Below are positions 4,485-61,154 of a stretch of DNA of 64,000 bases, in pieces. Position numbers and translations under genes: made by a program. Position 1 is the first letter of the stretch; every line of letters starts with the position of its first letter. This stretch comes from a virus (lineage: Duplodnaviria; Heunggongvirae; Uroviricota; Caudoviricetes). The stretch lies in IMG/VR virus record IMGVR_UViG_2531839524_000004. One strand, 5' to 3'. The notes beneath the pieces were generated by a model, which saw only the letters and a list, made by a program, of their open reading frames with translations, was not told the origin of the DNA and made no database searches.

Positions 4485-5225
4485 ATGAGCCAAATCTTTT
4501 TCGATACCATCGACAACGACCAGTACGACTTCATGACAGAGTGGAATACCGCTGTTATGGACAAGTGGGTCGCTGAAAACATTGGTTTGTCGCGCTGTAA
4601 AGACGAGGCTGAACTCTTCGAGACGAAGTGGTTTGATTACCGCGACATGCATCCTCTCATGGCCACCTGTCTTTTTACGGAGGCATACAAACGTCAGTAC
4701 TCAAATATCATGCTGACGCACGGTCGCGAACACTTTGAAACAGCTCCGTTCACCACCGGGTTAAAACGCCTGCCTTATCAGGAGTTGTCGACTGCCAATA
4801 AAACGTCGCTATGGAAAGCACGCCAGTTTGCGGATCGCTATTGCTGCTCATACGACTACTTTATCTCCACCGTTCTTTCCGCAGCTGCACGACGGCTGTG
4901 GGACAAGCTGCCGCGCCCACAGCATTTGTGGCAGCCAGAACTGATTGAGATATTTGAAGAGAAATTAGCCAGACGCGCAACAACCCGTCTGGATGACTCT
5001 CTGGTTAGCTTTAAGCATATGGGAGACATGCAGTTCAACCCGATTCAGGAAAGCTATTTTGAGTGGATTCTGGAGCGTTTGCGCACCATCCCTCGCAGCA
5101 AGCGCATACGCGCAATTTTCTCCGCTATCTGGCTAATGGAAATCGTTCCAGAGCGCCTTATTTCCGCCCACTTTCCAGAAGAACTGGAAGAAGCACGGCG
5201 GTTTATTGATCCCCTATCTAATTAA
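4485..5225 (+). CDS. hypothetical protein
   Basis: ORF with AGGTGA RBS 5 nt upstream of ATG 4485 (track ORF begins at in-frame GTG 4476). Confidence 0.5.
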   Translation: MSQIFFDTIDNDQYDFMTEWNTAVMDKWVAENIGLSRCKDEAELFETKWFDYRDMHPLMATCLFTEAYKRQYSNIMLTHGREHFETAPFTTGLKRLPYQELSTANKTSLWKARQFADRYCCSYDYFISTVLSAAARRLWDKLPRPQHLWQPELIEIFEEKLARRATTRLDDSLVSFKHMGDMQFNPIQESYFEWILERLRTIPRSKRIRAIFSAIWLMEIVPERLISAHFPEELEEARRFIDPLSN

Positions 5226-5268
5226 CTAATACTAGAAAACAATTTGTTTAAAAAACAAAGGAAAGCAC

Positions 5269-6609: not shown

Positions 6610-6690
6610 AAAATAAGCGTGGAGAACACCTCCACGCTTGATTCATTGGTGAAACAACTTTTCTTTTGCCAAACCACAAAAGAAAAACAC

Positions 6691-7872: not shown

Positions 7873-8901
7873 ACCAGTATTAGTCACGTAAACATTGACC
7901 GAAAATGATTTAACTTCTGTGTTGAAGTTGTCAGTCATTACCGCGAGGTAGGCATTCTTGGTATCTCTGAATTGCTTCAGGATGATTTGAACGTTATCGG
8001 TGCAAACAAACGAGGTAGCCAGATTGCCTCCTTTCTCTGAAAAATCCTTTAGGAAAGTGCAGTCAATTTTGCCATCATTAGCGGTGAAGGTGGCATCATC
8101 ACCCTGCCAGGTAAATGTTGCGTTAACGCCTTTATCAATGGATTTAGCAATAAGTCGCTGAGTGGAGGATTTTGCTTTAGATCTTGCTGCTGATGGTTGG
8201 TATTTACCGCTTTCTTTTAGTTCTGCAATGTAATCACAGCCATTTTTATCTTCTTTATCGCAAGCTGCCTGATAAAGCTCAGCTGCTTTTTTATAATCTT
8301 TTTTAACCCCTTCACCATACTCATACATAATGCCAAGATTCGCCAATGCAGATGCACTGCCTAGTTCGATTCCTTTTTTATAATACTCTATTGCCTTTTT
8401 GTAGCTTTTTGGCACGCCTGCGCCAACATAATATAACTGTCCTAGATATGACGCAGATTCAGGGTCGCCAGCCTCTACTGCAAGTTTGTGATATTTCAGG
8501 GAAAGTTTTTGGTCTTTCTTACCCGCAAGTCCTTTATGATAAATAACACCCAGATTGTGATAAGAGTTGCCTCCAGCTGCATCACCAGCTTTCTTAAAGA
8601 GTTCCTCTGCCTTTTTGAAATTTTTATCAACCCCATACCCAAGGGCATACATTATACCTAGAGCATTAAACGCTTCTTTGTTCCCCTTAGAAGTCGCCAG
8701 TTCAAGCCATTTTCTGGCTTCATCGTAGTTTTTTTCGACACCATGAATACCTTTCATATAGTCGATACCTAAAGCACTCTGTGACTCAACGTCGCCTGCT
8801 TTTGCCGCATCGATCAGCTTTTGTATTTCATAGGCATGTGCACTCCCCGAAACAAGTAATAGCGACAACATAAAGAAAGATATTGGTTTGAAATGTTTCA
8901 T
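7864..8901 (-). CDS. secreted Sel1-like repeat (SLR/TPR-like) protein with extra C-terminal domain
   Basis: N-terminal signal peptide MKHFKPISFFMLSLLLVSGSAHA; multiple repeats with A-G-x-x-Y-x-x-G pattern typical of Sel1 repeats. Confidence 0.7.
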   Translation of the reverse strand: MKHFKPISFFMLSLLLVSGSAHAYEIQKLIDAAKAGDVESQSALGIDYMKGIHGVEKNYDEARKWLELATSKGNKEAFNALGIMYALGYGVDKNFKKAEELFKKAGDAAGGNSYHNLGVIYHKGLAGKKDQKLSLKYHKLAVEAGDPESASYLGQLYYVGAGVPKSYKKAIEYYKKGIELGSASALANLGIMYEYGEGVKKDYKKAAELYQAACDKEDKNGCDYIAELKESGKYQPSAARSKAKSSTQRLIAKSIDKGVNATFTWQGDDATFTANDGKIDCTFLKDFSEKGGNLATSFVCTDNVQIILKQFRDTKNAYLAVMTDNFNTEVKSFSVNVYVTNTGSN

Positions 8902-9082
8902 TTTTGGATTTTCACAAGATGGTTAGGTGGTTGTGGCTACTCGGTGTAAGGCTTTGTAATCACCGATTGGTAAGGTTACTTCAATTTAGCTTAACTGTCA
9001 GCATACCCAATCGCCGAAAAGATAAGTAGATGATTACTTATTAGTGTGTAAGAATACTGCCATCTGTTAGCTAGGAGTTGGT

Positions 9083-9865
9083 ATGAAAGAAGAAATTAAG
9101 AGATTAGCCTGCAACATCATTGATAAAACTGGTTTAGAAATCAGCGAGAGCAATCGGCTAGACATCATTGAAAAAGCCGTCAATACGGCAATGGATCATA
9201 TCGCCACTCGTTTGGTCGAGATCCCGCTACCGGGGCTACCTTATCTGAAGGTTAAGTTGCGCGTATGGGGCGAACCTGCACATGCACGACGTTCTGCATT
9301 AGTTGTTTTTGTACGCAAAGAAAACTTACGAACTCTAAAAGTGCAGGTTGGGGCGTGGTTTGATGGCAGAGTCATCTATACAGATACCATTATCTGTCCT
9401 CCAGGTGACGAACATATTGAAGCCGTCATTCGAGAATCAATTCGAGCTATGCGCAGTTTAGCTTTGCTGGAAGACAAGCAAAACTTTGAAGATTACTTGC
9501 TGTCGGTAAAAGCTGAACCAACATTGTCTCTGAAAGCCGATTTCGTCACCCCGACAAATCTGTTGGAGGTTTTGATTAATAAAGGGGCTAATGATGCTGT
9601 AAACCTAATCAGGGAAAGCGAATATTCGACTCTTTGCGACATGTGCAAAAGCCAGTTGGATCTGGTGCATATCGTTATTGATGCTGGGAAGGCATGTGAT
9701 GGCGTAATGGCTGAATTTGCTGGGAAGATGGTCAGGATTGCTAACGAATTACCGATGATAGAGCAAGAGGCCAAATCATACGCCACCAATCATGTCACAG
9801 AGCTTCTTGCCCCCTATCGCTTAGAAAGCGATCAGCGCAAGATGATTAGCTGGGGAAGTTGGTAA
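9083..9865 (+). CDS. hypothetical protein
   Basis: 260 aa ORF with AGGAG RBS. Confidence 0.5.
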   Translation: MKEEIKRLACNIIDKTGLEISESNRLDIIEKAVNTAMDHIATRLVEIPLPGLPYLKVKLRVWGEPAHARRSALVVFVRKENLRTLKVQVGAWFDGRVIYTDTIICPPGDEHIEAVIRESIRAMRSLALLEDKQNFEDYLLSVKAEPTLSLKADFVTPTNLLEVLINKGANDAVNLIRESEYSTLCDMCKSQLDLVHIVIDAGKACDGVMAEFAGKMVRIANELPMIEQEAKSYATNHVTELLAPYRLESDQRKMISWGSW

Positions 9866-9932
9866 GCTCTCTGTGTGTCGTTTTTTACGCAAATAATGAT
9901 AGGTAAGCACAAGATTATTTCTGGCGGTAATT

Positions 9933-10403
9933 GTGAAAGCTGATTTGTCAAAAATCCCTTCTATTTCAGGAAATAACGGTTATTCACTTCGTTGTGAGGA
10001 AGTAAAGATAAACGGTGAGTCGGCATATTGCAGCTATTCCGTTTGCCAGCACACCATTCTTGCCTTCAAAGAAAACCGTCTTCCTCGAACTTCTTTCCAG
10101 TCGTGCGCAACCGCTATCAAAGCAGGCAAATGCAAGGCGTTAAAAATGATGGTTGAAGAGATTCGTAAAGGAGAATCTCTGTATTTCGAAGATATGACCG
10201 CGCTCATTAAGGAGGTTGAAGAACGGAATAAACAAGCCAGAACTATAAAACGAAAACGTGACAGTGTAACGATTAATAGCATGGTTAAGAAGAGCACCAC
10301 ATCACAAACAGCGATCACTGACGTGTATGCGGCGTTGCTTGAAGAAACAACAAAAGAAACACATGAGCAAATCGATCAACATATGGAGGCAAAACAACAA
10401 TGA
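9933..10403 (+). CDS. hypothetical Cys-rich protein
   Basis: ORF overlapping ligase start; several N-terminal cysteines; start codon uncertain (GTG in track). Confidence 0.4.
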   Translation: MKADLSKIPSISGNNGYSLRCEEVKINGESAYCSYSVCQHTILAFKENRLPRTSFQSCATAIKAGKCKALKMMVEEIRKGESLYFEDMTALIKEVEERNKQARTIKRKRDSVTINSMVKKSTTSQTAITDVYAALLEETTKETHEQIDQHMEAKQQ

Positions 10404-13862: not shown

Positions 13863-14016
13863 GACACAGCGTTGAGCGGTTTGGCCTTTTAATCAACTCG
13901 ATTAAGACTCCGCTAACATAAACCAGACCGCTCAACGCTGTGATAGATAATTACGGCAGACGTTCTTAACCATAGCTTGCTAACATCCTAGCAACACTTT
14001 TTTCAGCGCAAAATTC

Positions 14017-14041
14017 AAAGGGGCTTCGGCCCCTTTTTTGT
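14017..14041 (+). terminator. rho-independent terminator closing the tRNA cluster
   Basis: GGGGC-TTCG-GCCCC followed by TTTTTT. Confidence 0.8.
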
Positions 14042-14054
14042 TGAACAGTGCAAT

Positions 14055-15317
14055 TTACTTTGCATAGTCGCCCAATTTTAATATTTCGCGCTTATATTCA
14101 TTAACCATGCTACTGGATTCAGTATAAATTCGATTTAAAAGATTATCGTTATCTTTATTTTCATTTATCTTAATTAGTGCTAATTTATATTCATAGTCAT
14201 CAAATGCCACAATTAAATGGTGGCCTGGGATTATATCTTCGTCACTCTTAAAGTATATATCTTCAAGTATGTAATCTAGTTGATTAGATTTTCTTTTCTC
14301 GATGTAATCTTCAGCCATAGCTATTACATCATTCCTGTCATTTAACCTGTTTTTTTCGGAAGGCACATCTTCGTAATGTTGCACGATTGAACAACCAATA
14401 AGGCGTGGGATGTAAACGTCAAAATGAGTAACTCTATCATTCGCGGTTTTAAGTAGTTCCTCAAAGTAGTTTCTTACATGTAAAGGCAACTTCTCAAAGT
14501 AATCATTAATTATAGGAGAACAAGGAGTTTTATAATTCATAAGAACCGACGGTACGAGCTTTGGGTGTCGAAACATCCAGTCCCTTTTAACGTCCGATGG
14601 AACATAATAACTTTTAATGATATTATCAAAATAATTTATCATTCGAGATTTGAATATTTTGTTGAATCTAAGGTTTATGAATGTATCCAGATAAGGCATA
14701 TTTGAATAAGCATCATCAAAAAATATTTCATCATTGAAAAAATCATATTTATTCAATAAACAACACAGTTTTTCCGAATTAATATGTTCACAATAATCGA
14801 TTTTTAATCCAAAGATAGCAATGATCAACTTCATCTGAGGTGGGATTTTAAAAATTAATTGTGACACATACGCTCTTTTTTCCTTGAGACATTCCCCATC
14901 AATATAAAATGAACCATCCACATACTCAAATATATTAATAATATGCTTCACATACTGTATTACCTCATGCTGTCTTACCAATGGATAATATAGTCTATGT
15001 AACTCATCGCTGTTTAAATTAATTTTGTGTTTATCGATAATTTGTTTTGCAAGAAGACATAACTCATCATGTTGATTTAATAAGGAATCAAACCATTGTT
15101 TAAATGCACTCTTTCGCATTTCGAACAATGATTCAGTTGTTAATTGAAGGGCTGAAAAAGCTGCTTTTGCACTTTTTCTCGCTTCGTAGGCATTCCATGC
15201 TGTTGCTATAAAAGCAAATGCTGTAGCCAATGTTCCAACAGTTTGACCATTTAAAACAACCCAATCCCAAAAAATGACGGTGAGCAGTAGTATAATAATG
15301 AAAATTAAAAAAGGCAT
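14055..15317 (-). CDS. membrane-anchored hypothetical protein, strongly AT-rich accessory gene
   Basis: 420 aa; two N-terminal TM helices; base composition much more AT-rich than flanking genes; isolated on minus strand. Confidence 0.6.
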   Translation of the reverse strand: MPFLIFIIILLLTVIFWDWVVLNGQTVGTLATAFAFIATAWNAYEARKSAKAAFSALQLTTESLFEMRKSAFKQWFDSLLNQHDELCLLAKQIIDKHKINLNSDELHRLYYPLVRQHEVIQYVKHIINIFEYVDGSFYIDGECLKEKRAYVSQLIFKIPPQMKLIIAIFGLKIDYCEHINSEKLCCLLNKYDFFNDEIFFDDAYSNMPYLDTFINLRFNKIFKSRMINYFDNIIKSYYVPSDVKRDWMFRHPKLVPSVLMNYKTPCSPIINDYFEKLPLHVRNYFEELLKTANDRVTHFDVYIPRLIGCSIVQHYEDVPSEKNRLNDRNDVIAMAEDYIEKRKSNQLDYILEDIYFKSDEDIIPGHHLIVAFDDYEYKLALIKINENKDNDNLLNRIYTESSSMVNEYKREILKLGDYAK

Positions 15318-15491
15318 GTATGTATTTCACTCTACTAACTATAAAATATTAGGCTAATGTTAACCAAACAATGCCTTAATTAATAGATTGATCGAGGCTT
15401 TAATAGCTTTATAATGCAGACTGTAAAGATAAGTATGCACATACCTATCTTCTTTGTAAGTAAAGTTGCATATCAATTCTATGAGGTAACA

Positions 15492-15737
15492 ATGACGATC
15501 ACTATCTACGGACGAGATAACTGCTCATACTGCAAACGTGCGGTCGAGCTGGCGAAGCAACTAAAGGGACATGGCTACGGTGATTATGAGTACATCGACA
15601 TCACCACTGCCGGTATCGACAAGGAAAAACTAAGTGAAATTGTTGGTAAACCGGTAGAGACTATCCCCCAAGTGCTGATCGATGGCCAACCGATTGGCGG
15701 ATACACAGAACTGGCTGCATACGTCAGCACCCTCTGA
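15492..15737 (+). CDS. glutaredoxin/NrdH-like redoxin
   Basis: MTITIYGRDNCSYCKRA with CxxC active-site motif; GAGG RBS 4 nt upstream of ATG 15492. Confidence 0.7.
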   Translation: MTITIYGRDNCSYCKRAVELAKQLKGHGYGDYEYIDITTAGIDKEKLSEIVGKPVETIPQVLIDGQPIGGYTELAAYVSTL

Positions 15738-15741
15738 TTTT

Positions 15742-15766
15742 AACGGCTCACAGGAGCCGTTTTTAT
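15742..15766 (+). terminator. rho-independent terminator
   Basis: AACGGCTC-acag-GAGCCGTT followed by TTTATT. Confidence 0.65.
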
Positions 15767-15947
15767 TCCCACCAAACTCACTCCCGTTTCCCTTAAAATT
15801 CAAAAAACAACGTCAAAATGATTCCATACCTACTATGTATGGAATCATTACTGAAAATGAGTTACTTTGACTCTTGATCCTATAAGAATCTATGCCTAAT
15901 ATACTGTTTACTTATACAGTGAATCGGCGTAACTCGGTGATTGTCAT

Positions 15948-17051
15948 ATGAAAAATAGCTTTGACAGAGCACGCGCTGCGGAGAACACCTCAAAAGAGGC
16001 GATTGAGTATCTCGAAAGAGCATCTCAAATGCAGGCCGTTATGATCTCGCAGGTTAGCAATGATATGAGATTCTCGGACGCATTCATGTTATTTACTCGC
16101 TTATCTCTGCTGATAACAAGACGTCGGCCGGAGATCGCTGTTCATTGTATTTTGATACATGTTTTGCCGCACATTGCTGATGTAAAAGTAAGTGACATTA
16201 ATAGGTTCATGGTGAACCAACTGGTCAACCCCCTAATACTGGATGGCAAAATTGTTATGGGCCGCCGCGTTTTCTCTCTGATGAAGCAGTTCCTTAGCTG
16301 GTGTGCCTTCCAGGGGATGATCGACGTGTCACCGTTAAACGATATGTCACTAAACAAAGTTGCCGGTGGCGCAAAGCCCACGCCTCGCGAGCGGAAGCTA
16401 ACCGACGCAGAGGTATGGGTGTTCTGGAATATATGGGACTACTTCAATGTGTGCGCTGGTACAAAATGGGCGGCCAGGCTATGTCTTGTATCCGCAAGAC
16501 GACCTGACGAAGTACTGCGGGCTAAAAAAAGTGAGTTCAACCTCCAGCGTGGGGTTTGGAATCAAGGCAAGAGAAACAAATCAGCCCGTGAGCATTCTCT
16601 GCCTTTAAGCACATTAATGCGCACATGCATTGAAGAGTTATTCGAATATGGTAAAGGCAGCCAGTGGCTTGTGCCTTCGAATAAAAAAATCGGGAAAGAT
16701 CTTCCGATGTCTAAAGTGGCAATAGCCCAGGCATTACGCCGTATCCTGGAACGACCAGAACTGATGGAGCTTGAGCCATTTACACCACGAGATTTGCGTC
16801 GTACTGCGCGTAGTTACTTCCCAGCATTAGGCATAAGCCAGGAGGTATCACGTAAAATCATGAACCACAGTCTTGAGGGGATAGATCGGGTCTACGACCG
16901 GCACGATTATATGGACGAGATGCGAGACGCCTTAGAAAGTTTCTCGACGTACATCGCATCAATCGTAGAGCAACCGGATTTAGACGAAATTGACCACAAA
17001 TTCAAGGGAGATCGTCTATCGACAGAGCTTATTCGTGTAAATTTTTCATAG
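15948..17051 (+). CDS. tyrosine recombinase / phage-type integrase
   Basis: C-terminal catalytic region with DLRRT box and NHSLEG...RVYDRHDY (His and Tyr nucleophile); first His of HxLRR appears to be Arg. Confidence 0.65.
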   Translation: MKNSFDRARAAENTSKEAIEYLERASQMQAVMISQVSNDMRFSDAFMLFTRLSLLITRRRPEIAVHCILIHVLPHIADVKVSDINRFMVNQLVNPLILDGKIVMGRRVFSLMKQFLSWCAFQGMIDVSPLNDMSLNKVAGGAKPTPRERKLTDAEVWVFWNIWDYFNVCAGTKWAARLCLVSARRPDEVLRAKKSEFNLQRGVWNQGKRNKSAREHSLPLSTLMRTCIEELFEYGKGSQWLVPSNKKIGKDLPMSKVAIAQALRRILERPELMELEPFTPRDLRRTARSYFPALGISQEVSRKIMNHSLEGIDRVYDRHDYMDEMRDALESFSTYIASIVEQPDLDEIDHKFKGDRLSTELIRVNFS

Positions 17052-24600: not shown

Positions 24601-25134
24601 GCTGAAATTAACGTGCTCATGACACGGATGGCGGCTGAAATGGGTTTAGGTGATGAACTAATCCGCCCCAGCATTGGTATTAAGCCGAAAATCATGATCA
24701 TTCTGGACAATGCGAACGGCAATGATGCTCGAACCGGTTACTTTATGGAGAACGGATACGACGATTTTAAGGCCAAGTTGCTGACGGCCGGAGATTTGCG
24801 TATGGGCGATCTCTATGTCACAGGCGTTTGCAAGAAGGTTAAAGACAAAGAAAAAGACTACACCAAAGACGAGATCGGCCAGTTCACCGACTTTATGCGT
24901 GAAGAGATCAATCTGGTGCGTCCGACCTATGTTCTGACGTGTGGTAGTCGGGCGACGTCGCTCTTCAACAACAAGAGCAAACCATCCGACCTGGTTGGAC
25001 GCAAAGAGTATCTGCCAGAGCTGGATGTGACCGTTTTCTACGGCTTTAACCCGAATATTTTGTACTTTCGTCCAGAGGAAGGCGAGAAGCTGGAAGCAAT
25101 TCTGGCAGAGGTAGCGGAGACTATTAGCAAATGA
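21616..25134 (+). CDS. DNA polymerase III alpha-like (DnaE-family C-type polymerase)
   Basis: 1172 aa; strong match to DnaE catalytic core, e.g. GPGRGSSAGSLVAWCIGIT..DP and FERFINPERLDLPDADLDF. Confidence 0.9.
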   Translation: MKALMVRTDFSLGESALKAENAGKIAREAGYTAVISADSMNIASVIPLQRAAGDDMAVICGVKLNIVDDPTYEHRAKLAKESMRCMESLERGRNYSFTALIKNEQGYRDICELMTVANTREQFYFVPRLSLDQLVSTYAKGNIILLTSDIGSVFQRNDFAKIISSLITAGGKDNFYSVVYPHPTPFYDQINVRAMKVASALKIEPVAFYPAYYESIDDADIKDIAHMVTNNIKIAQPHRLRIPHQRDNAVNGRRHLLEALKAFSVRMDVPVTAAMASTTQDTIIEACTWRWHELPPALPKMADDEPATLMKLAVAGLRKRLTTKEFGYIPPASENRVYVERLKYEMDTLTRLGFCGYFLMVRDLMNHSRETGIPVGPGRGSSAGSLVAWCIGITNVDPIRHGLLFERFINPERLDLPDADLDFSQARRHEVIEYLNERYGEDYVAGIPNFTYLGAASALRDTARIYGVESADMAVSKELKNVEDDSLPLEELREQLASLDKYATKYPDAFNAACKLQSLMRGFGRHAAGMIVAGVPLTERTPVERRGDARCIAFDKRYCEAMGLIKLDVLGLATLDLLDSAKRYIKENTGEDINLDAISLEDRKVLDGFAAGYTQGVFQLESGPMRKLLKDLGSGIEPMSFKTVVATTALFRPGPIQSGMLDDYVSVAKGFMTPESLHPVLDELTAETNGVILYQEQTMNATRLLAGFTMAEADGVRKAIGKKDMEKMKSMGEKFIVQAQAGWIDVELEDGTTQRIHRAEHFKCEDGTLKTVEEALEHGAKLPINAVRVTASHPGLSEMKAKEIWTAFEKNGAYQFNKSHSVAYSLISYQSMWLKTHYPAEFFAAALTILGEDKHQGLVKDALTYGIRVLPPDVNVSSNRIEIRTLEDGSQVLFAPFSAVKGCSENGCQAIMRAREKVGGKFESLAQFEEAVEKRACNSRVRESLQKVGAFASIEPGSLPATDPERLRDQAELMGNLVIDAVKASRPFEMNPKRSAEINVLMTRMAAEMGLGDELIRPSIGIKPKIMIILDNANGNDARTGYFMENGYDDFKAKLLTAGDLRMGDLYVTGVCKKVKDKEKDYTKDEIGQFTDFMREEINLVRPTYVLTCGSRATSLFNNKSKPSDLVGRKEYLPELDVTVFYGFNPNILYFRPEEGEKLEAILAEVAETISK

Positions 25135-25312
25135 ACAAAGAGAACACCATAAAGGTGGTCAAAGAATTTATGGAAGTGAACAGATTGGCGATGTGAGACA
25201 GTATCGGCTGAAGCGTCAAACCAGAGTAACGCGATCCAACATTTTTAGTAAGAAAGTCGCTTAATTGTAAGGCTCGCTAAGTAGCGAGCCTTAATAGCAA
25301 CAATAAGAGGAC

Positions 25313-26161
25313 TCAATATTTAACAAATATTTCATTAAGCCTAGGGTTAACTTGGTCATATTTATCTATGTCGTCTTTTAAAACTGAATGACATTTGACA
25401 CCAATTTCAAATGCTATCAATATCGAATTTATATATTGATTATAGCATTCAATCAAAGATTTAATATCAGATGATAGTTGTATCAACCGTGGATTGACTC
25501 TAAGAGCACTAATAACCTTATCATACTTGTTAAGCAACCCATTCAATTCATTAGCAAAATTATATGGATAACCATTTTGGTATGTATTTTCATCATCAGC
25601 AGGACCTAAATAATCACCAATGCACTTAAGTTTATTCTTAATGAATACAGCATCTTCAGTGGCATCTATATCATTTTTCGTTAAGAAAAGTTCTATCCAC
25701 TTGTTCTTGTCCGACTCTTTCAAAAGGTTATTTTCTTTATCAAAAGTAATACAATAGCTATCACTTTTTTTCTCGTTGGAAATACTAATCATTTCCGCCA
25801 ACTCGTCTTTACCTAAATGTTTCCAAAATATTACAGGGAGACCGTTGTCGTTTAGAAAAACGCGAACAATGACAATCGGATCATTAATACTTTGCCAATA
25901 AATTAAATTTTTAATAGGTACAGAAACTCTTAGTGAATCATCGATTTTTTTACTTGTTGTTTTAACTTGAACTCCAATAAACATACCTGTTGAATGACAG
26001 TTGTCATCATAAATCTCAACCTGAGCATCCAACCCCATGTCAATATCAAGAATTCGGCAAGGCCATACAAATTTATTTGAAATCCAATATGCGAAATAAA
26101 ACTCACCAGCATTTCCGTTAGCAACTCTTTCGATATATCTCATGCCCTGATCGTTTGCCAC
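25313..26161 (-). CDS. hypothetical protein with PD-(D/E)xK-like N-terminal motif (recalled DUF4365-like pattern); AT-rich accessory gene
   Basis: 282 aa; LDIDMGLDAQVEIY ... IGVQVKTT arrangement; isolated minus-strand AT-rich gene convergent with polymerase. Confidence 0.55.
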   Translation of the reverse strand: MANDQGMRYIERVANGNAGEFYFAYWISNKFVWPCRILDIDMGLDAQVEIYDDNCHSTGMFIGVQVKTTSKKIDDSLRVSVPIKNLIYWQSINDPIVIVRVFLNDNGLPVIFWKHLGKDELAEMISISNEKKSDSYCITFDKENNLLKESDKNKWIELFLTKNDIDATEDAVFIKNKLKCIGDYLGPADDENTYQNGYPYNFANELNGLLNKYDKVISALRVNPRLIQLSSDIKSLIECYNQYINSILIAFEIGVKCHSVLKDDIDKYDQVNPRLNEIFVKY

Positions 26162-52094: not shown

Positions 52095-52688
52095 ATGATT
52101 GCAGCCGAAAAAATCAAACAGCGAAAGCGCGACAACTCTCTTCGTGACCTCTGGAGAACACCTGACTGGCTGTTTTCTGCCATTCAACGTTATCTTGGAG
52201 TGACATTTGATGTTGACGTTGCCTGCAACAAGGACAATGCAAAGCTGCCTAATTTCATAGGCGTTGAGCGTGATGCTTTGAAATCTGAATGGGGACAGCC
52301 AGGTACAATTGCCTTCCTCAATCCACCCTACTCCAAAATCTCCCCCTGGATTGATGCGGCTATACGTGAGCAGGCTCCCGGAGTTACAACAGTGATGCTA
52401 ATTCCTCAATCCCTAGATACAAAGTGGTATGAGCGTGCAACAGAGTGTGCGAATGAGACGATTATTCTGTCTGGTGGCCGCGTAGCGTTTGTCGAGCCTG
52501 ACGTAAATCTGGGTCAGGTAGAAGTAAACATCAACCCAGGTGGCAGTATGCTCGTTGTTTTTCGAGGATTCTGTCAGGACGCTGGGCACTCTATAAGCAA
52601 GATCCCTTTGGACGTCATGAAAAGTCTGGGAGGGTATGATCCTGCGAATGTGATCAGGAAAAAAAGACCATCAAAGAAGGCTGCTTAG
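52095..52688 (+). CDS. phage-type N6-adenine DNA methyltransferase (Dam-like)
   Basis: Catalytic motif FLNPPYS (DPPY/NPPY class) and small size (197 aa) typical of phage Dam family. Confidence 0.7.
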   Translation: MIAAEKIKQRKRDNSLRDLWRTPDWLFSAIQRYLGVTFDVDVACNKDNAKLPNFIGVERDALKSEWGQPGTIAFLNPPYSKISPWIDAAIREQAPGVTTVMLIPQSLDTKWYERATECANETIILSGGRVAFVEPDVNLGQVEVNINPGGSMLVVFRGFCQDAGHSISKIPLDVMKSLGGYDPANVIRKKRPSKKAA

Positions 52689-55211: not shown

Positions 55212-55637
55212 ATGTTAGGTTTCTTCAAAAAGAAAACTCGTAAAGCTGTTATCGAAGTCAAAAAAATGGAGAACCGTGATGCGGTTGAGGCCACCGTGTG
55301 GGGCGCGTACATGATCTCCTATGCCGACGGCACATGTGACGCAAAAGAAATTGCCATTCTTGAGAAGACAATTGCAGCTCTGCCTGCGTTTTCTCCGTTT
55401 GCTGGTGAAATTGCCCAAATGAGCGCCAATATCCGTGCTCGTTACGAAGCGTCCCCTCGTTCTGCTAATGCACAGGCTATTCGTGAGCTGTCTGATATTG
55501 CGGGTACTCCAGAGGCGGTCGATGTTCTGTGTCTGTGCCTTGATATTGCCGATCAGGACGGCATTGGTGAACAAGAAGAGCAGGCACTGAAAAAGATCGC
55601 CCAGGCGCTTCAGTTGTCACTGGATGCTTATCTCTAA
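55212..55637 (+). CDS. TerB-like domain protein
   Basis: By-eye resemblance to TerB tellurite-resistance domain (SYADGTCDAKEIAILE...DIADQDGIGEQEEQALKKIA); conserved leader upstream. Confidence 0.5.
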   Translation: MLGFFKKKTRKAVIEVKKMENRDAVEATVWGAYMISYADGTCDAKEIAILEKTIAALPAFSPFAGEIAQMSANIRARYEASPRSANAQAIRELSDIAGTPEAVDVLCLCLDIADQDGIGEQEEQALKKIAQALQLSLDAYL

Positions 55638-55796
55638 TGCTTGAGAGATTCCGGCTTGTGATCGTCATTGCTCTTCTGGTGATGGCGGGGTTGGTGGATT
55701 TTACGGGAAAGATGATGTCTGTCATTTCTGATGGCGTCCTCATTGGTTTGGCGATCTACTTCGCTTATCCGTTAGTTCGTAAAGCAAAGTGTTAAT
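55638..55796 (+). CDS. small membrane peptide (52 aa)
   Basis: ATG overlaps TerB-like stop (TAATG); hydrophobic sequence; followed by strong terminator; not in ORF track (under 60 aa). Confidence 0.4.
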
Positions 55797-55934: not shown

Positions 55935-56504
55935 ATGTGCAAGAAATGCAAAGCGATAGCTGATGAACAAAACGCCTTATTCGAAGAAATGGATGCTAAT
56001 GAACTGGTCAAAATGTTAGCCATTCTTCGAGGAATAGAAGACGTTTCCATATTTGAGAGAGTGGTTACAGCACTTAATTTTGAGTCCACCTTTGAAGAGC
56101 CAACTCAGGTTGTAGCTTTAGCACATCATTTCGGTGTTCATTATCTTGCTGAAAAAGAGCGCGCTGATAAGTTGCAGGCGACTTTGGATATGGTGAGCGA
56201 GACTCAACGAACTGATGACACTAACAAGAGTGAGGCGATTATTGCCAGCAAAGATCGTGAAATTGCTGGGCTTAAATCCTCTCTAACGATGTTGATGTCT
56301 GCGTTCAATCTTATGTCTTCTCAGGCGGGTTATAAAATGCCATCACTAAACAGCGATGATCCGATGGCCGTTCGTCAGCTTTTGGGAGCAATGGCCGACC
56401 AACTCGACGACACAAAGAGTCGGCTTGAAGACATGATGCGTGAGTTAAGCCATCGACATAACCTCGCAACACAGCCACACAAAGCCTTTCAAAGCTCTAA
56501 TTGA
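55935..56504 (+). CDS. hypothetical protein
   Basis: 189 aa; conserved leader GGAAAAACACATG. Confidence 0.5.
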   Translation: MCKKCKAIADEQNALFEEMDANELVKMLAILRGIEDVSIFERVVTALNFESTFEEPTQVVALAHHFGVHYLAEKERADKLQATLDMVSETQRTDDTNKSEAIIASKDREIAGLKSSLTMLMSAFNLMSSQAGYKMPSLNSDDPMAVRQLLGAMADQLDDTKSRLEDMMRELSHRHNLATQPHKAFQSSN

Positions 56505-56559
56505 TCTGATATGGCCGCATGATCGGCCATATTGTGTTGATAAAAAACAAGGATGAAAA

Positions 56560-56841
56560 ATGGCATACGGTACAGGGATTTACAACAATAAAGGAATTAA
56601 CGTTACTGGCTTCCTTACTCCTATTTTTTTTCTTGATCGATTTACTGCGTCATCAGGCTCTAAGACGTACTCCAATCCGCCACCGGGTAAATCGCTACAT
56701 GCCGTGTGGTCATTGATGCCTCTTAACAACGACAACTACATTAATTTACCTGTTCCAACAGTTACTATTAATGGAAATACGGTTAGTTGGTCAAATTTAT
56801 ATACGGGGCTTGGTTCTTACATATACACATACTGGGGATAA
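56560..56841 (+). CDS. hypothetical protein (AT-rich cassette)
   Basis: 93 aa; Gly/Asn/Thr/Tyr-rich. Confidence 0.4.
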   Translation: MAYGTGIYNNKGINVTGFLTPIFFLDRFTASSGSKTYSNPPPGKSLHAVWSLMPLNNDNYINLPVPTVTINGNTVSWSNLYTGLGSYIYTYWG

Positions 56842-56843
56842 TT

Positions 56844-57458
56844 ATGTTCGGGATGTCAATTACTCAATCAGATGGAAGTTTGTGGATGAGTCCAGAATTT
56901 ACTCCGCAAAATCTGATTAATAAAGGGACAATGTCTACATCTAAAGGTTCTGTTTTTCAAACATCAATCCCATCAAACAAATCATGCTTTTTCTTCATAA
57001 AAAGCAGTAATAAGGCGAACATGATGTTTATTCATGAGCATAGTAACGGATACAATGCTCTCAGATTGCATCAGGTAAATGGTAGCCCCGGAACAATAAC
57101 AGTTTATGCTTTTTCTGATATGGTGTTACCACATTCTGGCTATGGCATTGCCATGTATAACAGCGCAGGCGCAATGGTGTATCACGGTGAGATGATGCCC
57201 CTTGATGCGAAACTTATCACTATTTCGGACCCTCAATTTACCATAGATGTGGGGTATCCGTGTGCGGTAATGCCTGCTATGGTTGGGGTTTATAACTATA
57301 GACGAACCGATTACGACAGACCTGTCTATGTAACTATGACCGGTGCAACTGGAAACCAAGTATATAACGGTCAATGGTATTCCGGTAATGTCACATGGGA
57401 TATTAAGAAGATTTATACAAACAAAATCCTGGTTATAAATACCTCAAAGTATGATTAG
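56844..57458 (+). CDS. hypothetical protein (AT-rich cassette)
   Basis: ATG 56844 directly after upstream stop; 204 aa; Gly/Asn/Tyr-rich. Confidence 0.45.
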   Translation: MFGMSITQSDGSLWMSPEFTPQNLINKGTMSTSKGSVFQTSIPSNKSCFFFIKSSNKANMMFIHEHSNGYNALRLHQVNGSPGTITVYAFSDMVLPHSGYGIAMYNSAGAMVYHGEMMPLDAKLITISDPQFTIDVGYPCAVMPAMVGVYNYRRTDYDRPVYVTMTGATGNQVYNGQWYSGNVTWDIKKIYTNKILVINTSKYD

Positions 57459-57561
57459 CAAATACCTTTATTTAAAGGATTGCCTGTTAATTTCTATTTA
57501 GCACCTTTTCATTTTTGAAATAATTGCACCATTAAACAAATCTTTTCTTAATGGTGCAATT

Positions 57562-59247
57562 ATGAATACAGCTCTTTCCATCATCGACGATGCCAACTCA
57601 AACACTGCTATCGATTATCGTCAGGAAATGAACGTCATCCACGAAATTGTGGCCGAGTGCGAGAAGGAGATCGCCTTCATGTATCAGGTTCACGACTTCG
57701 TTTATGGAGACGAACGCCACAACATGATTAATCGCCTGCTGCAACTGAACCACCGACCAGATGAAGAACGCTCACGTTTGAATCGAGCTTGGCTGGATAA
57801 AGTCGATCTGGAATGGGTGAAACAGAATATTTGGGCCGAGTACTGGAGGAAGGTCACGGATATGACTAACGTTCTGCTGATCATGCCAGCTTCCCGTCGC
57901 GACGAGTGGCGTGAGCAGTTTATCGAGGGTAAGCAGGAAGTCATCAAAACTGACAGAACCGGCTATCAGATGAAGGTAAAAGAGTTCGTTGGTGTACCGG
58001 AGTTCAAAGCAGAAACGGTCATACCCACGATGCTTAATTTGCTGAATGACAGGCACAAATATCTCTCTGAGCGCGTGTATGGCTTGTTTAAGGCGCTGAG
58101 TCCTGCGCACAAGACAAATAAGACAAACGGTTTCAGCGAACGTCTGATAATCGCTGACTGCATTTCTGATTTCTGGCGGGACAGCGTTAGTGTGAACTAT
58201 CGCAAAGAGGACTATATCGACGATCTGCGTGTCTTGCTTCATTTCTTCGCGCACAAAGAATTTATTACCATCAACCGCACTGCTGAGGTGCTATCAGCTG
58301 CGTATCGGGCAAACGACTGCCGGACCGGTGACTGGATGAACGTCGATGGAAATCTGATGCGCGTGAAGATGTTCAAGAACGGCAACGTTCACTTTGAAAT
58401 ACATCCTGACGTGGCCTGGAAGTTGAATGAGGGGCTGGCTTACAGTATGCCTGCTGCAATCCCCGCGCCATGTCGCACCGCGCCAAAAACACGGGCACCA
58501 AAGCAGTTCGGGTTAATCCAGAAGACGATCTCCGTGCCGGTTCGCACTGCGCTTCGTGACGGGCGATTGAGCAAAGACAAAGGCGTATGGTACTTCTCTG
58601 ATTCAGCTCTCCAGAAGTCGCAGGTGGAAGAGCTTGAGCGCACACTGAGCTTCATTGGCGGCGTGCAGGAGAAAAAGCACTGGCAGTTCCCGTATGACAT
58701 CGTCCATACGCTAAATACGATTGTGGCTACCGGTTTAATACCGGATACAAAATCACACCAGTTCTACCCTCCCCCACGCTTGATTGCTGAGTACGTTGCC
58801 AGAGCCACTGAATTGAAGTCTGGTGAGAAGCTGCTGGAGCCTCAAGCCGGACGTGGGGATCTTCTGGCCTATATTAACGCCGATCTGGAAGATGTTACCT
58901 GCATAGAAATCGCACCTCTCTTCGCTGATATCCTGCGTGGAAAAGGGTATACGAACACGATTTGCTGCGACTTCATAAAGTGGTCTGAGGACAACGTAGG
59001 TTATCAGTTCGACAAAATCGTTATGAACCCGCCGTATTCGCTTGGTCGTCATAGAGAGCACACGCTGGCTGCGCTGGGGCATCTGAAAGTCGGCGGGCGT
59101 CTTGTAGCAGTATTGCCGGGCACTGCGCCAATACTGGACTGGATGACGATGGATAATTACGTTTATGCCAGAGGGAAGTCGTTTACCAACGAGTTTGAAG
59201 ACACAGGGATCACAGTCAGCGTATACGTTTTCAAACGCGTTAAATGA
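57562..59247 (+). CDS. large protein with C-terminal amino-methyltransferase domain (gamma-class, NPPY)
   Basis: C-terminal motif I-like LLEPQAGRGDLL and motif IV IVMNPPYS; N-terminal about 400 aa without recognisable motifs. Confidence 0.65.
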   Translation: MNTALSIIDDANSNTAIDYRQEMNVIHEIVAECEKEIAFMYQVHDFVYGDERHNMINRLLQLNHRPDEERSRLNRAWLDKVDLEWVKQNIWAEYWRKVTDMTNVLLIMPASRRDEWREQFIEGKQEVIKTDRTGYQMKVKEFVGVPEFKAETVIPTMLNLLNDRHKYLSERVYGLFKALSPAHKTNKTNGFSERLIIADCISDFWRDSVSVNYRKEDYIDDLRVLLHFFAHKEFITINRTAEVLSAAYRANDCRTGDWMNVDGNLMRVKMFKNGNVHFEIHPDVAWKLNEGLAYSMPAAIPAPCRTAPKTRAPKQFGLIQKTISVPVRTALRDGRLSKDKGVWYFSDSALQKSQVEELERTLSFIGGVQEKKHWQFPYDIVHTLNTIVATGLIPDTKSHQFYPPPRLIAEYVARATELKSGEKLLEPQAGRGDLLAYINADLEDVTCIEIAPLFADILRGKGYTNTICCDFIKWSEDNVGYQFDKIVMNPPYSLGRHREHTLAALGHLKVGGRLVAVLPGTAPILDWMTMDNYVYARGKSFTNEFEDTGITVSVYVFKRVK

Positions 59248-59308: not shown

Positions 59309-60013
59309 ATGAACAACCTCCAGTTAGAGCATTTTAACGTCACAGGCCATTCTGATTTTCCTTTCAAGTTTACATTGAAAGGTTATGCAGAGGATGCGGT
59401 AGGCCAGATCATTATTGATAAAGGCATCGTTAAGTTTGAGGGGGATTTTGATGAATCCGCGAAAACATTCATAGACTTCGTTGCCAAACGTTGGAGCGAG
59501 CAATGGAAAAACCTGGAAAAGCGCGCCAATGAGTTTGATCGGTTCATGGATGCAATGGATACAGCAAAAGAGGCTCTTGATGCCGGGACTCCGTTAGATC
59601 TGGAGTCACTTTTCAACGGCGAAGTGGCCTCTGCGATGTTTGCCACCATGTTCGCGGGTGAGTTCGTCCGCAGCGGTGCCAAAAACTACCTTGAGCTGGA
59701 TTACAACGTCCCTGCAATTGGCGATTTCGTCGTTACCATCCAACGCAAAGAAGGTAAGACGCCAGGTGAACGCGTCGCAGAGCTTGAGGCCGTTGTGGAT
59801 CAGCGTAACGGAGAGTGTGACCGTTTGATCAACGAGCTTCATGCACTTCGGGAAGAAAGAATATGTGCGGGTAGCAATACACGTAATGCAGCGGATATCT
59901 ACTTCCAGTTAGTTGAGGAATGCCAGATTCCACCAGGTGGCTCTCTTGTCGATTACGTCAGACATTTAATGGCGGAAGTTAACTCCAGCCATAAAGATGG
60001 TGAGGTGCGCTGA
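59309..60013 (+). CDS. hypothetical protein
   Basis: 234 aa; conserved leader AGAAAAACACATG. Confidence 0.5.
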   Translation: MNNLQLEHFNVTGHSDFPFKFTLKGYAEDAVGQIIIDKGIVKFEGDFDESAKTFIDFVAKRWSEQWKNLEKRANEFDRFMDAMDTAKEALDAGTPLDLESLFNGEVASAMFATMFAGEFVRSGAKNYLELDYNVPAIGDFVVTIQRKEGKTPGERVAELEAVVDQRNGECDRLINELHALREERICAGSNTRNAADIYFQLVEECQIPPGGSLVDYVRHLMAEVNSSHKDGEVR

Positions 60014-60393
60014 TGTTTGGCATTGACGCACAGCGTATAGCCGCTTTTGCAAAAAGCCCTCTTGATAATCCCTTGTCTCGTAGTGAGCAAATGGAGCTGG
60101 CAAGGCTTTTTCTTCACATTCAAAAACAGGCAGACATTTTCAATAACATGCCTAATCAACCTATTCTGGATGGTCACATCCAGATGGTCATTAACAGTCA
60201 TGAGAAAGGCTGGGCTGCAATCGTCCCCTGCACAATTACATACAAGTTGGCGAAAGAGGTTCAAGAGTTTCGAAAAGCCAGTGTCGAATCGGAGTCTACC
60301 AAAGCCGCAATAAACACTCTTATTCGCATGGGGTTCACATGGACCGGTGGAGCCTACTGGCAAGCACCTCACCCCATTTTATCCGGCAATTAG
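60013..60393 (+). CDS. hypothetical protein
   Basis: 126 aa, ATGA-coupled to upstream gene. Confidence 0.5.
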   Translation: MFGIDAQRIAAFAKSPLDNPLSRSEQMELARLFLHIQKQADIFNNMPNQPILDGHIQMVINSHEKGWAAIVPCTITYKLAKEVQEFRKASVESESTKAAINTLIRMGFTWTGGAYWQAPHPILSGN

Positions 60394-60512: not shown

Positions 60513-61154
60513 ATGTCTAGTATTTCCGAAGCTCATATGTTCGCCGCTGGCGCTCATGGTGGCGTTGGTCAGAAAAGAAAATATACCGGCGAAGACTACA
60601 TCAACCACCCGGTTGCTGTCCGAGAGATTGTTGCATTGCATGACGGAACCGTGGAGATGCAAATCGCGGCGCTTCTGCATGATGTGGTCGAAGACACCCA
60701 TGTAACCATAGAGATGGTTCGTGATCACTTCGGTGAGCGCGTAGCTGAAATGGTTCAGGCTCTGACCAACATTGCAAGGCCAGAAGACGGCAATCGAATA
60801 CAGCGTTTCATCATCAATGTCCGGGAGCTGGAGCAAAATCTCGACATGCAGACGCGCATGATCAAGCTGGCTGACCTGCTCGACAATACCTCTTCTATCG
60901 TGAGTCGCGATCCCGAGTTTTCAGCTGTCTACCTCGCAGAGAAAGAACTGATGCTGGACGTACTCTTTCACGGCAAAGAGATTGGTGCCAATGCTGATGT
61001 TGTCGAGTACATGGAGAGGATCGGTATAGAACACCCGTTGCTATTAAGCGCAATGGCGAAAGTCACTGAAGGTATTGCGCTTCTGAAACCGGTACACATC
61101 AAACGTTATGAAAAACACAAATCGCTGATCTGGAGCGCGTGGGAGGCTGCATGA
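60513..61154 (+). CDS. RelA/SpoT-type HD-domain hydrolase (small alarmone hydrolase-like)
   Basis: HPVAV...AALLHDVVEDT...FGERVAEMV...IKLADLLDN matches the (p)ppGpp hydrolase HD domain motifs. Confidence 0.75.
   Translation: MSSISEAHMFAAGAHGGVGQKRKYTGEDYINHPVAVREIVALHDGTVEMQIAALLHDVVEDTHVTIEMVRDHFGERVAEMVQALTNIARPEDGNRIQRFIINVRELEQNLDMQTRMIKLADLLDNTSSIVSRDPEFSAVYLAEKELMLDVLFHGKEIGANADVVEYMERIGIEHPLLLSAMAKVTEGIALLKPVHIKRYEKHKSLIWSAWEAA

Follow-up and report, generated by a model that had tools for sequence, protein, structure and literature searches.

The region from 56560 to 59247 of the window (the whole 64,000-nucleotide stretch that was analyzed) is largely ordinary. The best joint explanation for its three genes, which we regard as reasonably probable, is that an orphan, anti-restriction N6-adenine DNA methyltransferase is preceded by unrelated receptor-binding cargo. 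The methyltransferase is an ordinary member of a family that is widespread, already catalogued, and experimentally unstudied.

The window derives from an E. coli phage-plasmid of the SSU5/pHCM2 type, a non-mobilizable element, and shares 99.9% identity with plasmids of ~109 kb. The three open reading frames described in the initial annotation were confirmed (Table 1). The start of the 204-aa gene is the ATG at 56844, as in RefSeq and in homologues; the mechanically called frame begins at a TTG at 56787. A scan for promoters and terminators was uninformative, with promoter-like sites fewer than in shuffled sequences.

Table 1. Features of the window, with positions counted from its first letter (aa, residues of the 561-aa protein).
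Feature	Position	Strand	Basis
Compact phage Dam-type N6-adenine methyltransferase, SSU5_088 orthologue; second methyltransferase of the element	52095..52688	+	Profile matches, SSU5 gene order
Segment of ~1 kb replacing the 81-bp, terminator-containing spacer of SSU5 between orthologous genes	56484..57481		SSU5 comparison, DNA homology, GC
93-aa protein, PHROG 557, small partner of receptor-binding-locus pair	56560..56841	+	PHROG, pairwise identities
204-aa protein, PHROG 425, large partner of receptor-binding-locus pair	56844..57458	+	PHROG, pairwise identities
Hairpin over methyltransferase start, 16-bp stem, 12-nt loop	57520..57563	+	Folding dG and z
561-aa DUF4942-family class I SAM-dependent methyltransferase, predicted N6-adenine; SSU5-like core gene	57562..59247	+	Pfam, PHROG, gene order
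N-terminal helical region, aa 1–139	57562..57978	+	AF2 models, alignment, conservation
DUF4942 core, aa 140–294	57979..58443	+	Pfam PF13708, conservation
Small alpha/beta sub-domains directly before catalytic fold, aa 320–395	58519..58746	+	AF2 models, alignment, conservation, PHROG
Minimal Rossmann methyltransferase module, aa 396–561	58747..59244	+	Motifs, structural and sequence matches
QFYPPP	58759-58776	+	Catalytic module
Motif I, EPQAGRG, residue 426	58837-58857	+	Catalytic module
Motif IV, NPPY, residue 489	59026-59037	+	Catalytic module

Architecture of the DUF4942 methyltransferase

The 561-aa protein is the orthologue of SSU5_095 (91% amino acid identity), holds the same position in gene order as in SSU5, and shares 98–99.9% identity with RefSeq entries from E. 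coli phage-plasmids; it is annotated as a “DUF4942 domain-containing protein”. Over its full length it matches PHROG 6263 (“DNA methyltransferase”, E = 6e-296), and residues 140–294 match Pfam DUF4942 (PF13708; E = 1e-19, 71.4 bits where the cutoff is 25), as do all 24 of the 24 family members aligned. NCBIfam holds no family for the protein. Members of PF13708/PHROG 6263 include SSU5 gp095, “YdiA” of S. Typhi pHCM2, and L0010 of SRL-type islands in E. coli and Shigella, all of the same full-length architecture. There is no substantive difference between these relatives and the window protein, other than that the E. coli lineage has gained the upstream receptor-binding pair and a hairpin occluding the start codon. 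Names given to distant family members at their sources were uninformative.

The initial annotation described a gamma-type amino-methyltransferase module at the end of a large, uncharacterized N-terminal sequence. The module is indeed C-terminal to ~395 residues that carry no assigned function, although the Pfam and PHROG matches mean that this sequence is already catalogued; the sensing or targeting role suggested for it is conjecture. The suggestion that such a fusion is unusual did not survive comparison: the architecture is fixed in no fewer than 579 sequence clusters from Proteobacteria, and 131 of 134 full-length relatives, retrieved by the N-terminus alone, have a C-terminal NPP[YFW] module. 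The median distance in these relatives is 70 aa between NPP[YFW] and the C-terminus, and 59 aa between NPP[YFW] and the motif I upstream of it.

Motif I, the acidic residues of motifs II/III, and NPP[YF] are invariant in the family, including relatives down to 33% identity. A class I Rossmann fold with motif I ahead of motif IV places the module in the gamma class. M.TaqI, M.BseCI, and CamA each possess their own C-terminal target-recognition domain. In contrast, the window enzyme ends ~70 residues past NPPY, a stretch that completes the Rossmann fold in the model, and its extra mass is N-terminal and of an unrelated fold. Segment-wise Pfam searches (E ≤ 5) gave no match for residues 1–125 or 301–395, and for the C-terminus yielded only sub-threshold methyltransferase families.

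Within the N-terminal region, residues 1–82 diverge fastest and are missing from many relatives, and many genomic relatives align only from about residue 82–92 onward. The segment that follows (83–139) is conserved, with W95, T102, M108, P109, and W116 invariant. The DUF4942 core is the most conserved part of the protein, above the catalytic domain, with 16.1% of its columns invariant; these include R164, E170, S180, H183, T185, N186, D221, R223, D262, H277, H281, D283, and N289. Because residues 320–395 are fast-diverging and rich in indels, they are a candidate specificity region; they also stay with the catalytic module where it occurs in a different architecture (phrog_9133, matching aa 328–560).

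Such conservation of the core, with its invariant His, Asp, and Arg residues, is unlike that of a variable target-recognition domain and sits uneasily with the explanation preferred here. A second activity could lie behind it, as could a fixed target other than a DNA sequence. The core might even be a new functional domain with a new fold and an unusual mode of action, a reading that we hold to be doubtful. In that event, the enzyme could methylate adenines broadly or near-nonspecifically in incoming or replicating DNA, much like M.EcoGII or M.EcoGIX but independently evolved, or the core could have a second catalytic activity.

Substrate, neighbors, and kin

The DNA enzymes nearest to the catalytic module are gamma-class m6A methyltransferases (M.TaqI at 24% and CamA at 25% identity). 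The best PDB sequence match is to ErmC′ (E = 1e-3), and the Pfam methyltransferase matches are all sub-threshold and divided among MTS, N6_Mtase, and RrnaAD, a split that speaks against the DNA adenine assignment. The ErmC′ match, together with sub-threshold MTS in 8 of 24 members and RrnaAD in 2 of 24, could point to a substrate other than DNA, namely RNA (adenine-N6 of rRNA or tRNA, or another exocyclic amine) or protein glutamine. DUF4942 would then recognize a host substrate that is conserved universally, with effects such as altered translation or evasion of RNA-targeting defense, and the N-terminal core is kept from Alpha- to Gammaproteobacteria, as would be expected for a fixed substrate. 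We consider this unlikely. The DNA enzymes score equally and at higher identity, PADLOC matches are to DNA methyltransferases throughout (Type II enzymes and mad2 only), on phage genomes some family members occur together with a Dam-type enzyme, and in phages the homologues closest to the module form part of proteins annotated as DarB-like antirestriction or DNA methyltransferase. The N-terminal segments are near neutral in net charge, which is uninformative about nucleic-acid binding and so lends the preferred explanation no positive support on this point.

These phage homologues are giant proteins of the P1 DarB-like, polyvalent virion type (phrog_15406, phrog_11358, and phrog_10691, and the “DarB-like antirestriction” protein of Serratia phage Parlo). 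The window enzyme differs from them in standing alone at 561 aa, free of helicase and other polyvalent domains, and P1 DarB itself gave no significant match to it. A possible functional analogue is found in M.EcoGIX and M.BceJIII, which are plasmid-borne, promiscuous, single-strand-specific orphan methyltransferases of the beta class, with a DPPY motif, encoded in conjugative leading regions (PMC7736820). The likeness is that of orphan adenine methyltransferases on mobile elements, thought to shield incoming DNA. Membership in the M.EcoGIX type was rejected, since the enzyme of the window shows the gamma motif order with NPPY and resides on a non-mobilizable phage-plasmid; there is no kinship in sequence or architecture.

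The element carries a second, different adenine methyltransferase, as had been proposed. Profile matches identify the product of 52095..52688 as a phage Dam, with E = 9.7e-38 for PF05869 and a score over the cutoff for TIGR01712. Both enzymes are core to SSU5-like elements, in which such a pair is the rule. The DUF4942 enzyme occurs in 858 plasmid records, and the settings of the family are all mobile elements: phage-plasmids, prophage ends beside the integrase, ParAB plasmids, and CP4-57/SRL-type islands, where its members adjoin KlcA, RadC, and CbtA (PMC6980539, PMC10587187).

Among 80 methyltransferase loci, the most recurrent neighbor family was present in at most eight, and the ten most recurrent neighbors scanned were phage and plasmid housekeeping genes with no nuclease family among them. 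Because no partner gene recurs beyond this, the methyltransferase looks like an orphan. The initial annotation had entertained a defense module with a cognate nuclease, and this was not borne out: nothing resembling a Type II/IIG or MADS system, with a fused or neighboring nuclease or effector, was found. The protein might still be conceived as half of a restriction or defense system, or as a single-chain one, with the DUF4942 core as a Type IIG-like nuclease or effector or with a downstream gene (59309-60393, or the HD-domain gene at 60513-61154) as the effector. Residues H183, D221, D262, H277, H281, D283, and N289, invariant in a beta-hairpin-plus-helix context, would suit such a role, as would a weak PADLOC match to mad2 (E = 2.7e-14) that is confined to the catalytic domain. 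We judge it improbable, given that Pfam, PHROGs, NCBIfam, PADLOC, and structural matches reveal no nuclease in the N-terminus or elsewhere in the protein, that the 80 loci lack a conserved neighbor, and that the downstream genes are specific to the SSU5 group and do not accompany the family. A DrmE_N match in a downstream gene (E = 0.009), which could be counted toward a defense role, is below cutoff with no significant stretch and was taken as chance.

A receptor-binding-locus pair inserted upstream

The two genes upstream of the methyltransferase correspond to the T1-like receptor-binding pair, PHROG 557 plus PHROG 425, found downstream of gpJ. The 93-aa protein matches phrog_557 (E = 4.7e-29) and is 76% identical to JenP2 gp22, 64% to gp57 of Stx phage PA2, and 49% to tonn_66; neither a signal peptide nor a transmembrane segment was found in it. 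The 204-aa protein matches phrog_425 (E = 2.7e-72), with identities of 82% to JenP2 gp21, 61% to PA2 gp56, and 24% to T1 ST31. PDB sequence searches with both proteins returned no matches, and rtp44/45 of the LptD-type Rtp locus were rejected as relatives, not being homologous.

A “bona fide RBP locus” has been described downstream of gpJ in Drexlerviridae, Dhillonvirus, and Queuovirinae (BASEL collection, PMC8594841), and the concept is also used in a preprint (10.64898/2026.04.02.716166), where >30% identity over >99% coverage delimits the BtuB class. The 204-aa protein shares 40% identity with tonn_67 over 204 of 204 residues, and the allele of FritzSarasin, a BtuB-dependent phage, is 98.5% identical to tonn_67. 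On these homologies the pair would be a BtuB-class allele, the class of FritzSarasin, with BtuB as its candidate receptor. The pairs T1 ST32/ST31, FritzSarasin bas04_0024/0023, and JenP2 gp22/gp21 are homologous to the cassette, equal in size, and equally tightly coupled. The window pair differs from the RBP locus in position, since it is not at a tail locus but between the SSU5_094 orthologue and the methyltransferase, in the early/replication region ~50 kb from the tail genes. It also lacks an adjoining gene for a Cor/Llp-type lipoprotein.

The pair is absent from the corresponding position in SSU5, and the insertion is confined to Escherichia and Shigella relatives. JenP2-like DNA (76% nucleotide identity) covers 56554-57458, and the tail locus of an E. 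coli relative lacks the pair. The cassette had been called AT-rich, which is correct in direction but only moderately so in degree: its GC content of 0.394 lies below the 0.451 average of the window (z = −1.6, at the 5th percentile for stretches of 899 bp), and the methyltransferase gene stands at 0.500. Base composition and DNA homology single out the pair as a discrete insertion, with the cassette apparently acquired horizontally from a Nonagvirus-like phage into an intergenic spacer as cargo unrelated to the methyltransferase.

At the junction lies a hairpin (dG −20.6 kcal/mol, z = −6.0; the SSU5 z is +1.0) that is predicted to sequester an SD-like GGUG together with the A and U of the methyltransferase start codon. 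It occurs in the cassette-bearing lineage and not in SSU5 or a Klebsiella relative. Its overlap with the methyltransferase start, the shared strand, a gap of only 103 bp, and the lack of a predicted terminator between the cassette and the methyltransferase would all be compatible with a single operon, in which, for instance, the small proteins target or regulate the enzyme. This is very improbable and is effectively refuted by the comparative data. SSU5 and most relatives carry the methyltransferase without the pair, which is found in only 124 plasmid records, compared with the 858 for the methyltransferase. The pair also occurs in 287 phage records. In the six elements examined (T1, tonn, FritzSarasin, JenP2, PA2, and SSU5) it resides at tail-fiber loci, adjoining gpJ in the first four, with no DUF4942-type methyltransferase nearby. 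The discrete insertion argues likewise, and the functional link proposed between the upstream genes and the methyltransferase falls away. The initial annotation would have yielded to two findings together, namely no such link and an N-terminus matching the target-recognition domain of a characterized orphan methyltransferase; the first was obtained, whereas the N-terminus matches no characterized target-recognition domain.

The hairpin also bears on whether methylation is chiefly regulatory, acting on replication, copy number, lysis-lysogeny, or packaging in the manner of Dam or CcrM, instead of serving anti-restriction. A strong structure over the SD and AUG points to translation that is tightly limited or conditional in this lineage, the enzyme is an orphan, and its gene lies within a block for replication and nucleotide metabolism. 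We nonetheless think a regulatory role rather unlikely. The hairpin is lineage-specific, and the family inhabits widely differing kinds of element whose replication systems are unrelated. Furthermore, the gene is not essential for maintenance, because some viable Klebsiella relatives have lost it, keeping only a stub, and have a Type I restriction-modification system in its stead. Such dispensability also counts against the anti-restriction explanation.

Proposed role and significance

Taken with the unrelated cargo upstream, the preferred explanation holds that the 561-aa protein is a solitary mobile-element N6-adenine DNA methyltransferase, most likely serving self-protective DNA methylation. 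Its C-terminal 165 residues would form a minimal gamma-order catalytic fold and, because this lacks an M.TaqI-like C-terminal target-recognition domain, substrate binding most likely falls to the conserved N-terminal region. Within it, the DUF4942 core may provide a conserved scaffold or clamp, and the variable residues 320–395 may determine specificity. The methyltransferase, produced together with the Dam-type enzyme from the early/replication gene block, would modify the element’s own DNA, and host DNA incidentally, such that progeny genomes would be pre-protected against the restriction systems of the next host. The upstream pair would derive from a Nonagvirus-like phage and represent, as an allele of the BtuB class, the two-gene receptor-binding locus that T1-like siphoviruses carry.

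The importance of the finding is modest. The family is catalogued but experimentally untouched; a literature search found no methylome or biochemical data for any DUF4942 member, and no functional data in work on the SSU5 methyltransferase or phage-plasmid methylomes. It resides on hundreds of phage-plasmids of clinical Enterobacteriaceae, including S. Typhi pHCM2, as well as in genomic islands and prophages of Proteobacteria, and anti-defense screens report almost nothing for the SSU5-type group. The target motif, once known, would help in reading bacterial methylomes and in understanding how SSU5-type elements cross restriction barriers. The N-terminal 395 residues have a confident AlphaFold model and no solved structural relative, and are therefore a reasonable target for structural biology. 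If DUF4942 were indeed a new functional domain, it would represent a widespread, unrecognized class of anti-restriction enzymes of phages, plasmids, and genomic islands. A possibly more useful by-product is the pair itself, putatively of the BtuB class, which appears to have moved from a virulent Nonagvirus-like phage to an ectopic site in a temperate phage-plasmid. It would be a concrete example of the exchange of host-range modules between virulent phages and plasmid-like prophages.

The carrier element and its early block

The 3-kb region that holds the three genes of interest shares 99.9% identity with ~109-kb non-mobilizable plasmids of E. coli and is matched by 554 plasmid records from Escherichia, Klebsiella, Enterobacter, Salmonella and Citrobacter. 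The same genes are carried by Salmonella phage SSU5 and by the E. coli phages CMS-2020a, Cyrano and PhiR41_1. Together, the near-identity to plasmids and the genes shared with phages identify the window, on sequence grounds, as part of an SSU5/pHCM2-type phage-plasmid. The three open reading frames described in the initial annotation, a two-gene cassette followed by a methyltransferase, were recovered, and the same three CDSs appear in the RefSeq annotation. They lie in the early/replication block of the SSU5/pHCM2 group, surrounded by genes that all run on the + strand and encode thymidylate synthase, DHFR, a 3'-5' exonuclease, Dam, RNase H, a TerB-domain protein and an HD-domain protein.

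The TerB gene is followed by a 52-aa ORF, annotated as DUF3927 in the RefSeq record of an identical plasmid. E. coli and Klebsiella relatives keep both upstream of the region; SSU5 lacks the two, and the anti-repressor Ant occupies their position. The HD-domain gene, three genes downstream of the methyltransferase, is conserved in SSU5 as SSU5_099. The GC minima of the window fall below the GC content of the cassette and may be other horizontally acquired inserts.

Features of the window discussed in the text
Feature	Position	Strand	Description
GC minimum	14001-16000		GC 0.315-0.381
GC minimum	25001-26000		GC 0.345
Dam gene	52095-52688	+	Phage N6-adenine methyltransferase; PF05869, E 9.7e-38; TIGR01712 exceeds its cutoff
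TerB-domain gene and following 52-aa ORF	55212-55795	+	TerB domain: PF05099, E 2.4e-7
ORF upstream of cassette	55935-56504	+
Inverted repeat	56509-56532		9 bp, ATATGGCCG N6 CGGCCATAT; no T-run
JenP2-like DNA	56554-57458		76% identity to Nonagvirus JenP2
Cassette gene 1	56560-56841	+	93 aa; PHROG 557, E 4.7e-29
Cassette gene 2	56844-57458	+	204 aa; PHROG 425, E 2.7e-72; probable start ATG 56844
Hairpin	57520-57563		Perfect 16-bp stem, 12-nt loop; dG -20.6 kcal/mol, z -6.0
Methyltransferase gene	57562-59247	+	561 aa; GC 0.500
HD-domain gene	60513-61154	+	HD_4-type phosphohydrolase; PF13328, E 1.2e-18

An orphan methyltransferase with a DUF4942 domain

The element carries two adenine methyltransferases, as had been proposed. 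SSU5 also has both, with an orthologue of the larger enzyme at 91% identity (SSU5_095) and a Dam gene (SSU5_088) in the same order, which makes two such genes the ancestral state of the SSU5 group. The motifs quoted for the larger enzyme were likewise confirmed (EPQAGRG, aa 426-432; NPPY, aa 489-492), and QFYPPP (aa 400-405) precedes motif I. As in gamma-class amino-methyltransferases, motif I comes ahead of motif IV. Unlike those enzymes, the chain stops ~70 residues past NPPY and so lacks the usual C-terminal target-recognition domain. An AlphaFold2 model built from 24 diverse homologues was confident (pLDDT 82.7, pTM 0.70). All catalytic-motif residues (P427, A429, G430, G432, E449, D470, F471, N489, P490 and P491) are invariant in relatives down to 33% identity, which argues for an active enzyme.

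That the substrate is DNA is inferred, since Pfam methyltransferase matches among 24 members of the family were mixed and all sub-threshold (MTS 8/24, N6_Mtase 3/24, RrnaAD 2/24, Eco57I 1/24). A family-profile search of PDB sequences matched ErmC', M.TaqI and EcoR124 M weakly. DNA is favored by higher identity to DNA enzymes, by PADLOC matches to DNA methyltransferases only, by the PHROG label, and by the closest phage relatives of the module, which sit in giant proteins annotated as DarB-like antirestriction proteins or DNA methyltransferases.

The N-terminal 395 residues had been described as a large unknown fusion. This is no one-off, as DUF4942, a curated Pfam family, is matched by aa 140-294 and PHROG 6263 by the entire protein. 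When 1.84 billion cluster representatives were searched exhaustively by HMMER with aa 1-395 alone, at least 579 relatives were recovered. The family is present on both chromosomes and plasmids of Gamma-, Beta- and Alphaproteobacteria. Among the 134 top relatives of at least 450 aa, 131 have NPP[YFW]; its median distance to the C-terminus is 70 residues, and motif I lies a median of 59 residues upstream of it. The DUF4942 core is the best-conserved part of the protein (16.1% invariant columns versus 12.7% in the catalytic module), and the polar residues that never vary within it are R164, E170, S180, H183, T185, N186, D221, R223, D262, H277, H281, D283 and N289. Divergence is fastest in aa 1-82 and 320-395, with frequent indels in the latter. 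Since aa 328-560 recur inside a 1,259-position PHROG profile and the DUF4942-like core matches a separate profile of ~299 positions, the modules are separable. On one reading, aa 320-395 plus the Rossmann fold would form the methyltransferase unit, with aa 320-395 the likeliest specificity element, and DUF4942 would be a conserved accessory domain.

A defence module had also been suggested. When every ORF within 6 kb of the gene was clustered across 80 loci, no recurrent partner exceeded 8/80, and those eight represent one common syntenic element. The ten most recurrent neighbours scanned include a ParB-HTH protein, a D12 Dam, a CI-type S24 repressor, a lambda integrase and a YqaJ recombinase; the rest are a bacterial Ig-like-domain protein, a weak DnaJ-type zinc-finger match and three without a Pfam match. 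The Erwinia amylovora copy adjoins an integrase at a prophage end, metagenomic copies lie near ParAB, and DUF4942 genes have been listed in SRL/CP4-57-type islands beside YeeU/CbtA, RadC and KlcA-like genes (PMC6980539, PMC10587187). No nuclease partner was evident in any of these settings, and no experimental work on any member of the family was found in the literature searched. Self-methylation of the element's DNA against restriction is the most probable role, at slightly better than even chances; its rivals are an RNA or other substrate, a regulatory role and a hidden second activity of DUF4942.

Two side observations concern related loci. In chromosomes of Enterobacter, Huaxiibacter, Superficieibacter and Pseudocitrobacter, a distinct sub-lineage (L032, L035-L037 and related loci; 31% identity over the full length) occupies one conserved element, with a ParB-HTH protein directly upstream and a D12-class Dam ~1.8 kb upstream on the opposite strand, a further instance of a DUF4942 enzyme together with a Dam-type enzyme. 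In the SSU5-like K. pneumoniae plasmid pRHBSTW-00832_3 (positions 4965-10123, equivalent to window 57562 onward), the methyltransferase is reduced to a 71-codon stub and its place is taken by hsdR, hsdS and hsdM, a complete Type I R-M system on the opposite strand; in other sampled Klebsiella plasmids, matches to the gene are confined to nt 37-159. The locus is therefore a hotspot of cargo exchange.

The cassette as a transplanted receptor-binding pair

The cassette is AT-rich as stated (GC 0.394 versus 0.451 for the window), although only moderately so (5th percentile, z -1.6). Its second gene most likely begins two bases past the stop of the first. The proposed tie to the methyltransferase does not hold, as the cassette is unrelated cargo of recognisable identity. 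In SSU5, the methyltransferase comes straight after the orthologue of the upstream ORF, with only an 81-bp spacer containing a terminator between them; SSU5 homology ends at window 56483 and restarts at 57482, and the JenP2-like DNA covers exactly 56554-57458. The pair occurs in 124 plasmid records, all from Escherichia or Shigella bar one uncultured-bacterium record, and the methyltransferase gene in 858, which cover at least eight genera.

In every other phage examined, the pair belongs to a host-recognition module. In T1, ST32/ST31 and then Cor lie directly downstream of the J-like central tail fibre gene. The pair of tonn has the same place, convergent to the J-like fibre gene, and FritzSarasin shares this position and three-gene layout; in tonn, the gene immediately upstream encodes a lipobox lipoprotein. 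The pair adjoins central tail fibre gene J in JenP2, follows the tail fibre adhesin in SSU5 (023/024, then Cor), and lies between the tail fibre genes and lom in Stx phage PA2. Nothing in the sequences backs the labels "outer membrane protein" and "membrane associated protein", as both proteins lack a signal peptide and any TM-grade hydrophobic segment. Such receptor-binding loci have been described as horizontally mobile and matching receptor specificity (PMC8594841), and a 2026 preprint (10.64898/2026.04.02.716166) describes receptor-specific RBP families encoded alongside one accessory protein or two.

The 204-aa protein shares 82% identity with JenP2 gp21 and 40% over its full length with tonn_67, to which the FritzSarasin allele is 98.5% identical; FritzSarasin has BtuB as its terminal receptor (BASEL S5 table). 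In contrast, the T1 (FhuA) pair is distant (24-28% identity), and Rtp rtp44/45 (LptD type) are unrelated. For these reasons the cassette can reasonably be regarded as a putative BtuB-class allele.

The tail module of E. coli plasmid pG749_2 (9000-19400) differs from that of SSU5, as its large tail proteins, one of 1,575 and one of 1,342 aa, lead directly into holin, endolysin and Rz. This tail locus has no adhesin, PHROG 557/425 pair or cor, all present there in SSU5, so the ectopic copy adjoining the methyltransferase is the single copy of the pair in this E. coli lineage.

Structures also mark the two junctions. On the left, the inverted repeat lies directly past the stop of the upstream ORF. 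On the right, the hairpin is predicted to sequester an SD-like GGUG together with the start codon of the methyltransferase at its first two bases, and may repress translation. Nothing comparable was found in SSU5 (z +1.0) or in one Klebsiella relative (z +0.1), and the 5' arm resembles the conserved 3' arm in inverted form, as if copied from it when the cassette insertion made this junction.

The initial annotation rested on a real observation, and its interpretation was right only in part. Mobile elements carry a large, uncharacterised family of orphan methyltransferases, of which this enzyme is an ordinary and already annotated member, and little here is new, as family, domain and gene are all catalogued. 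What remains of interest is the DUF4942 domain, which is unstudied, and the transplanted receptor-binding module.
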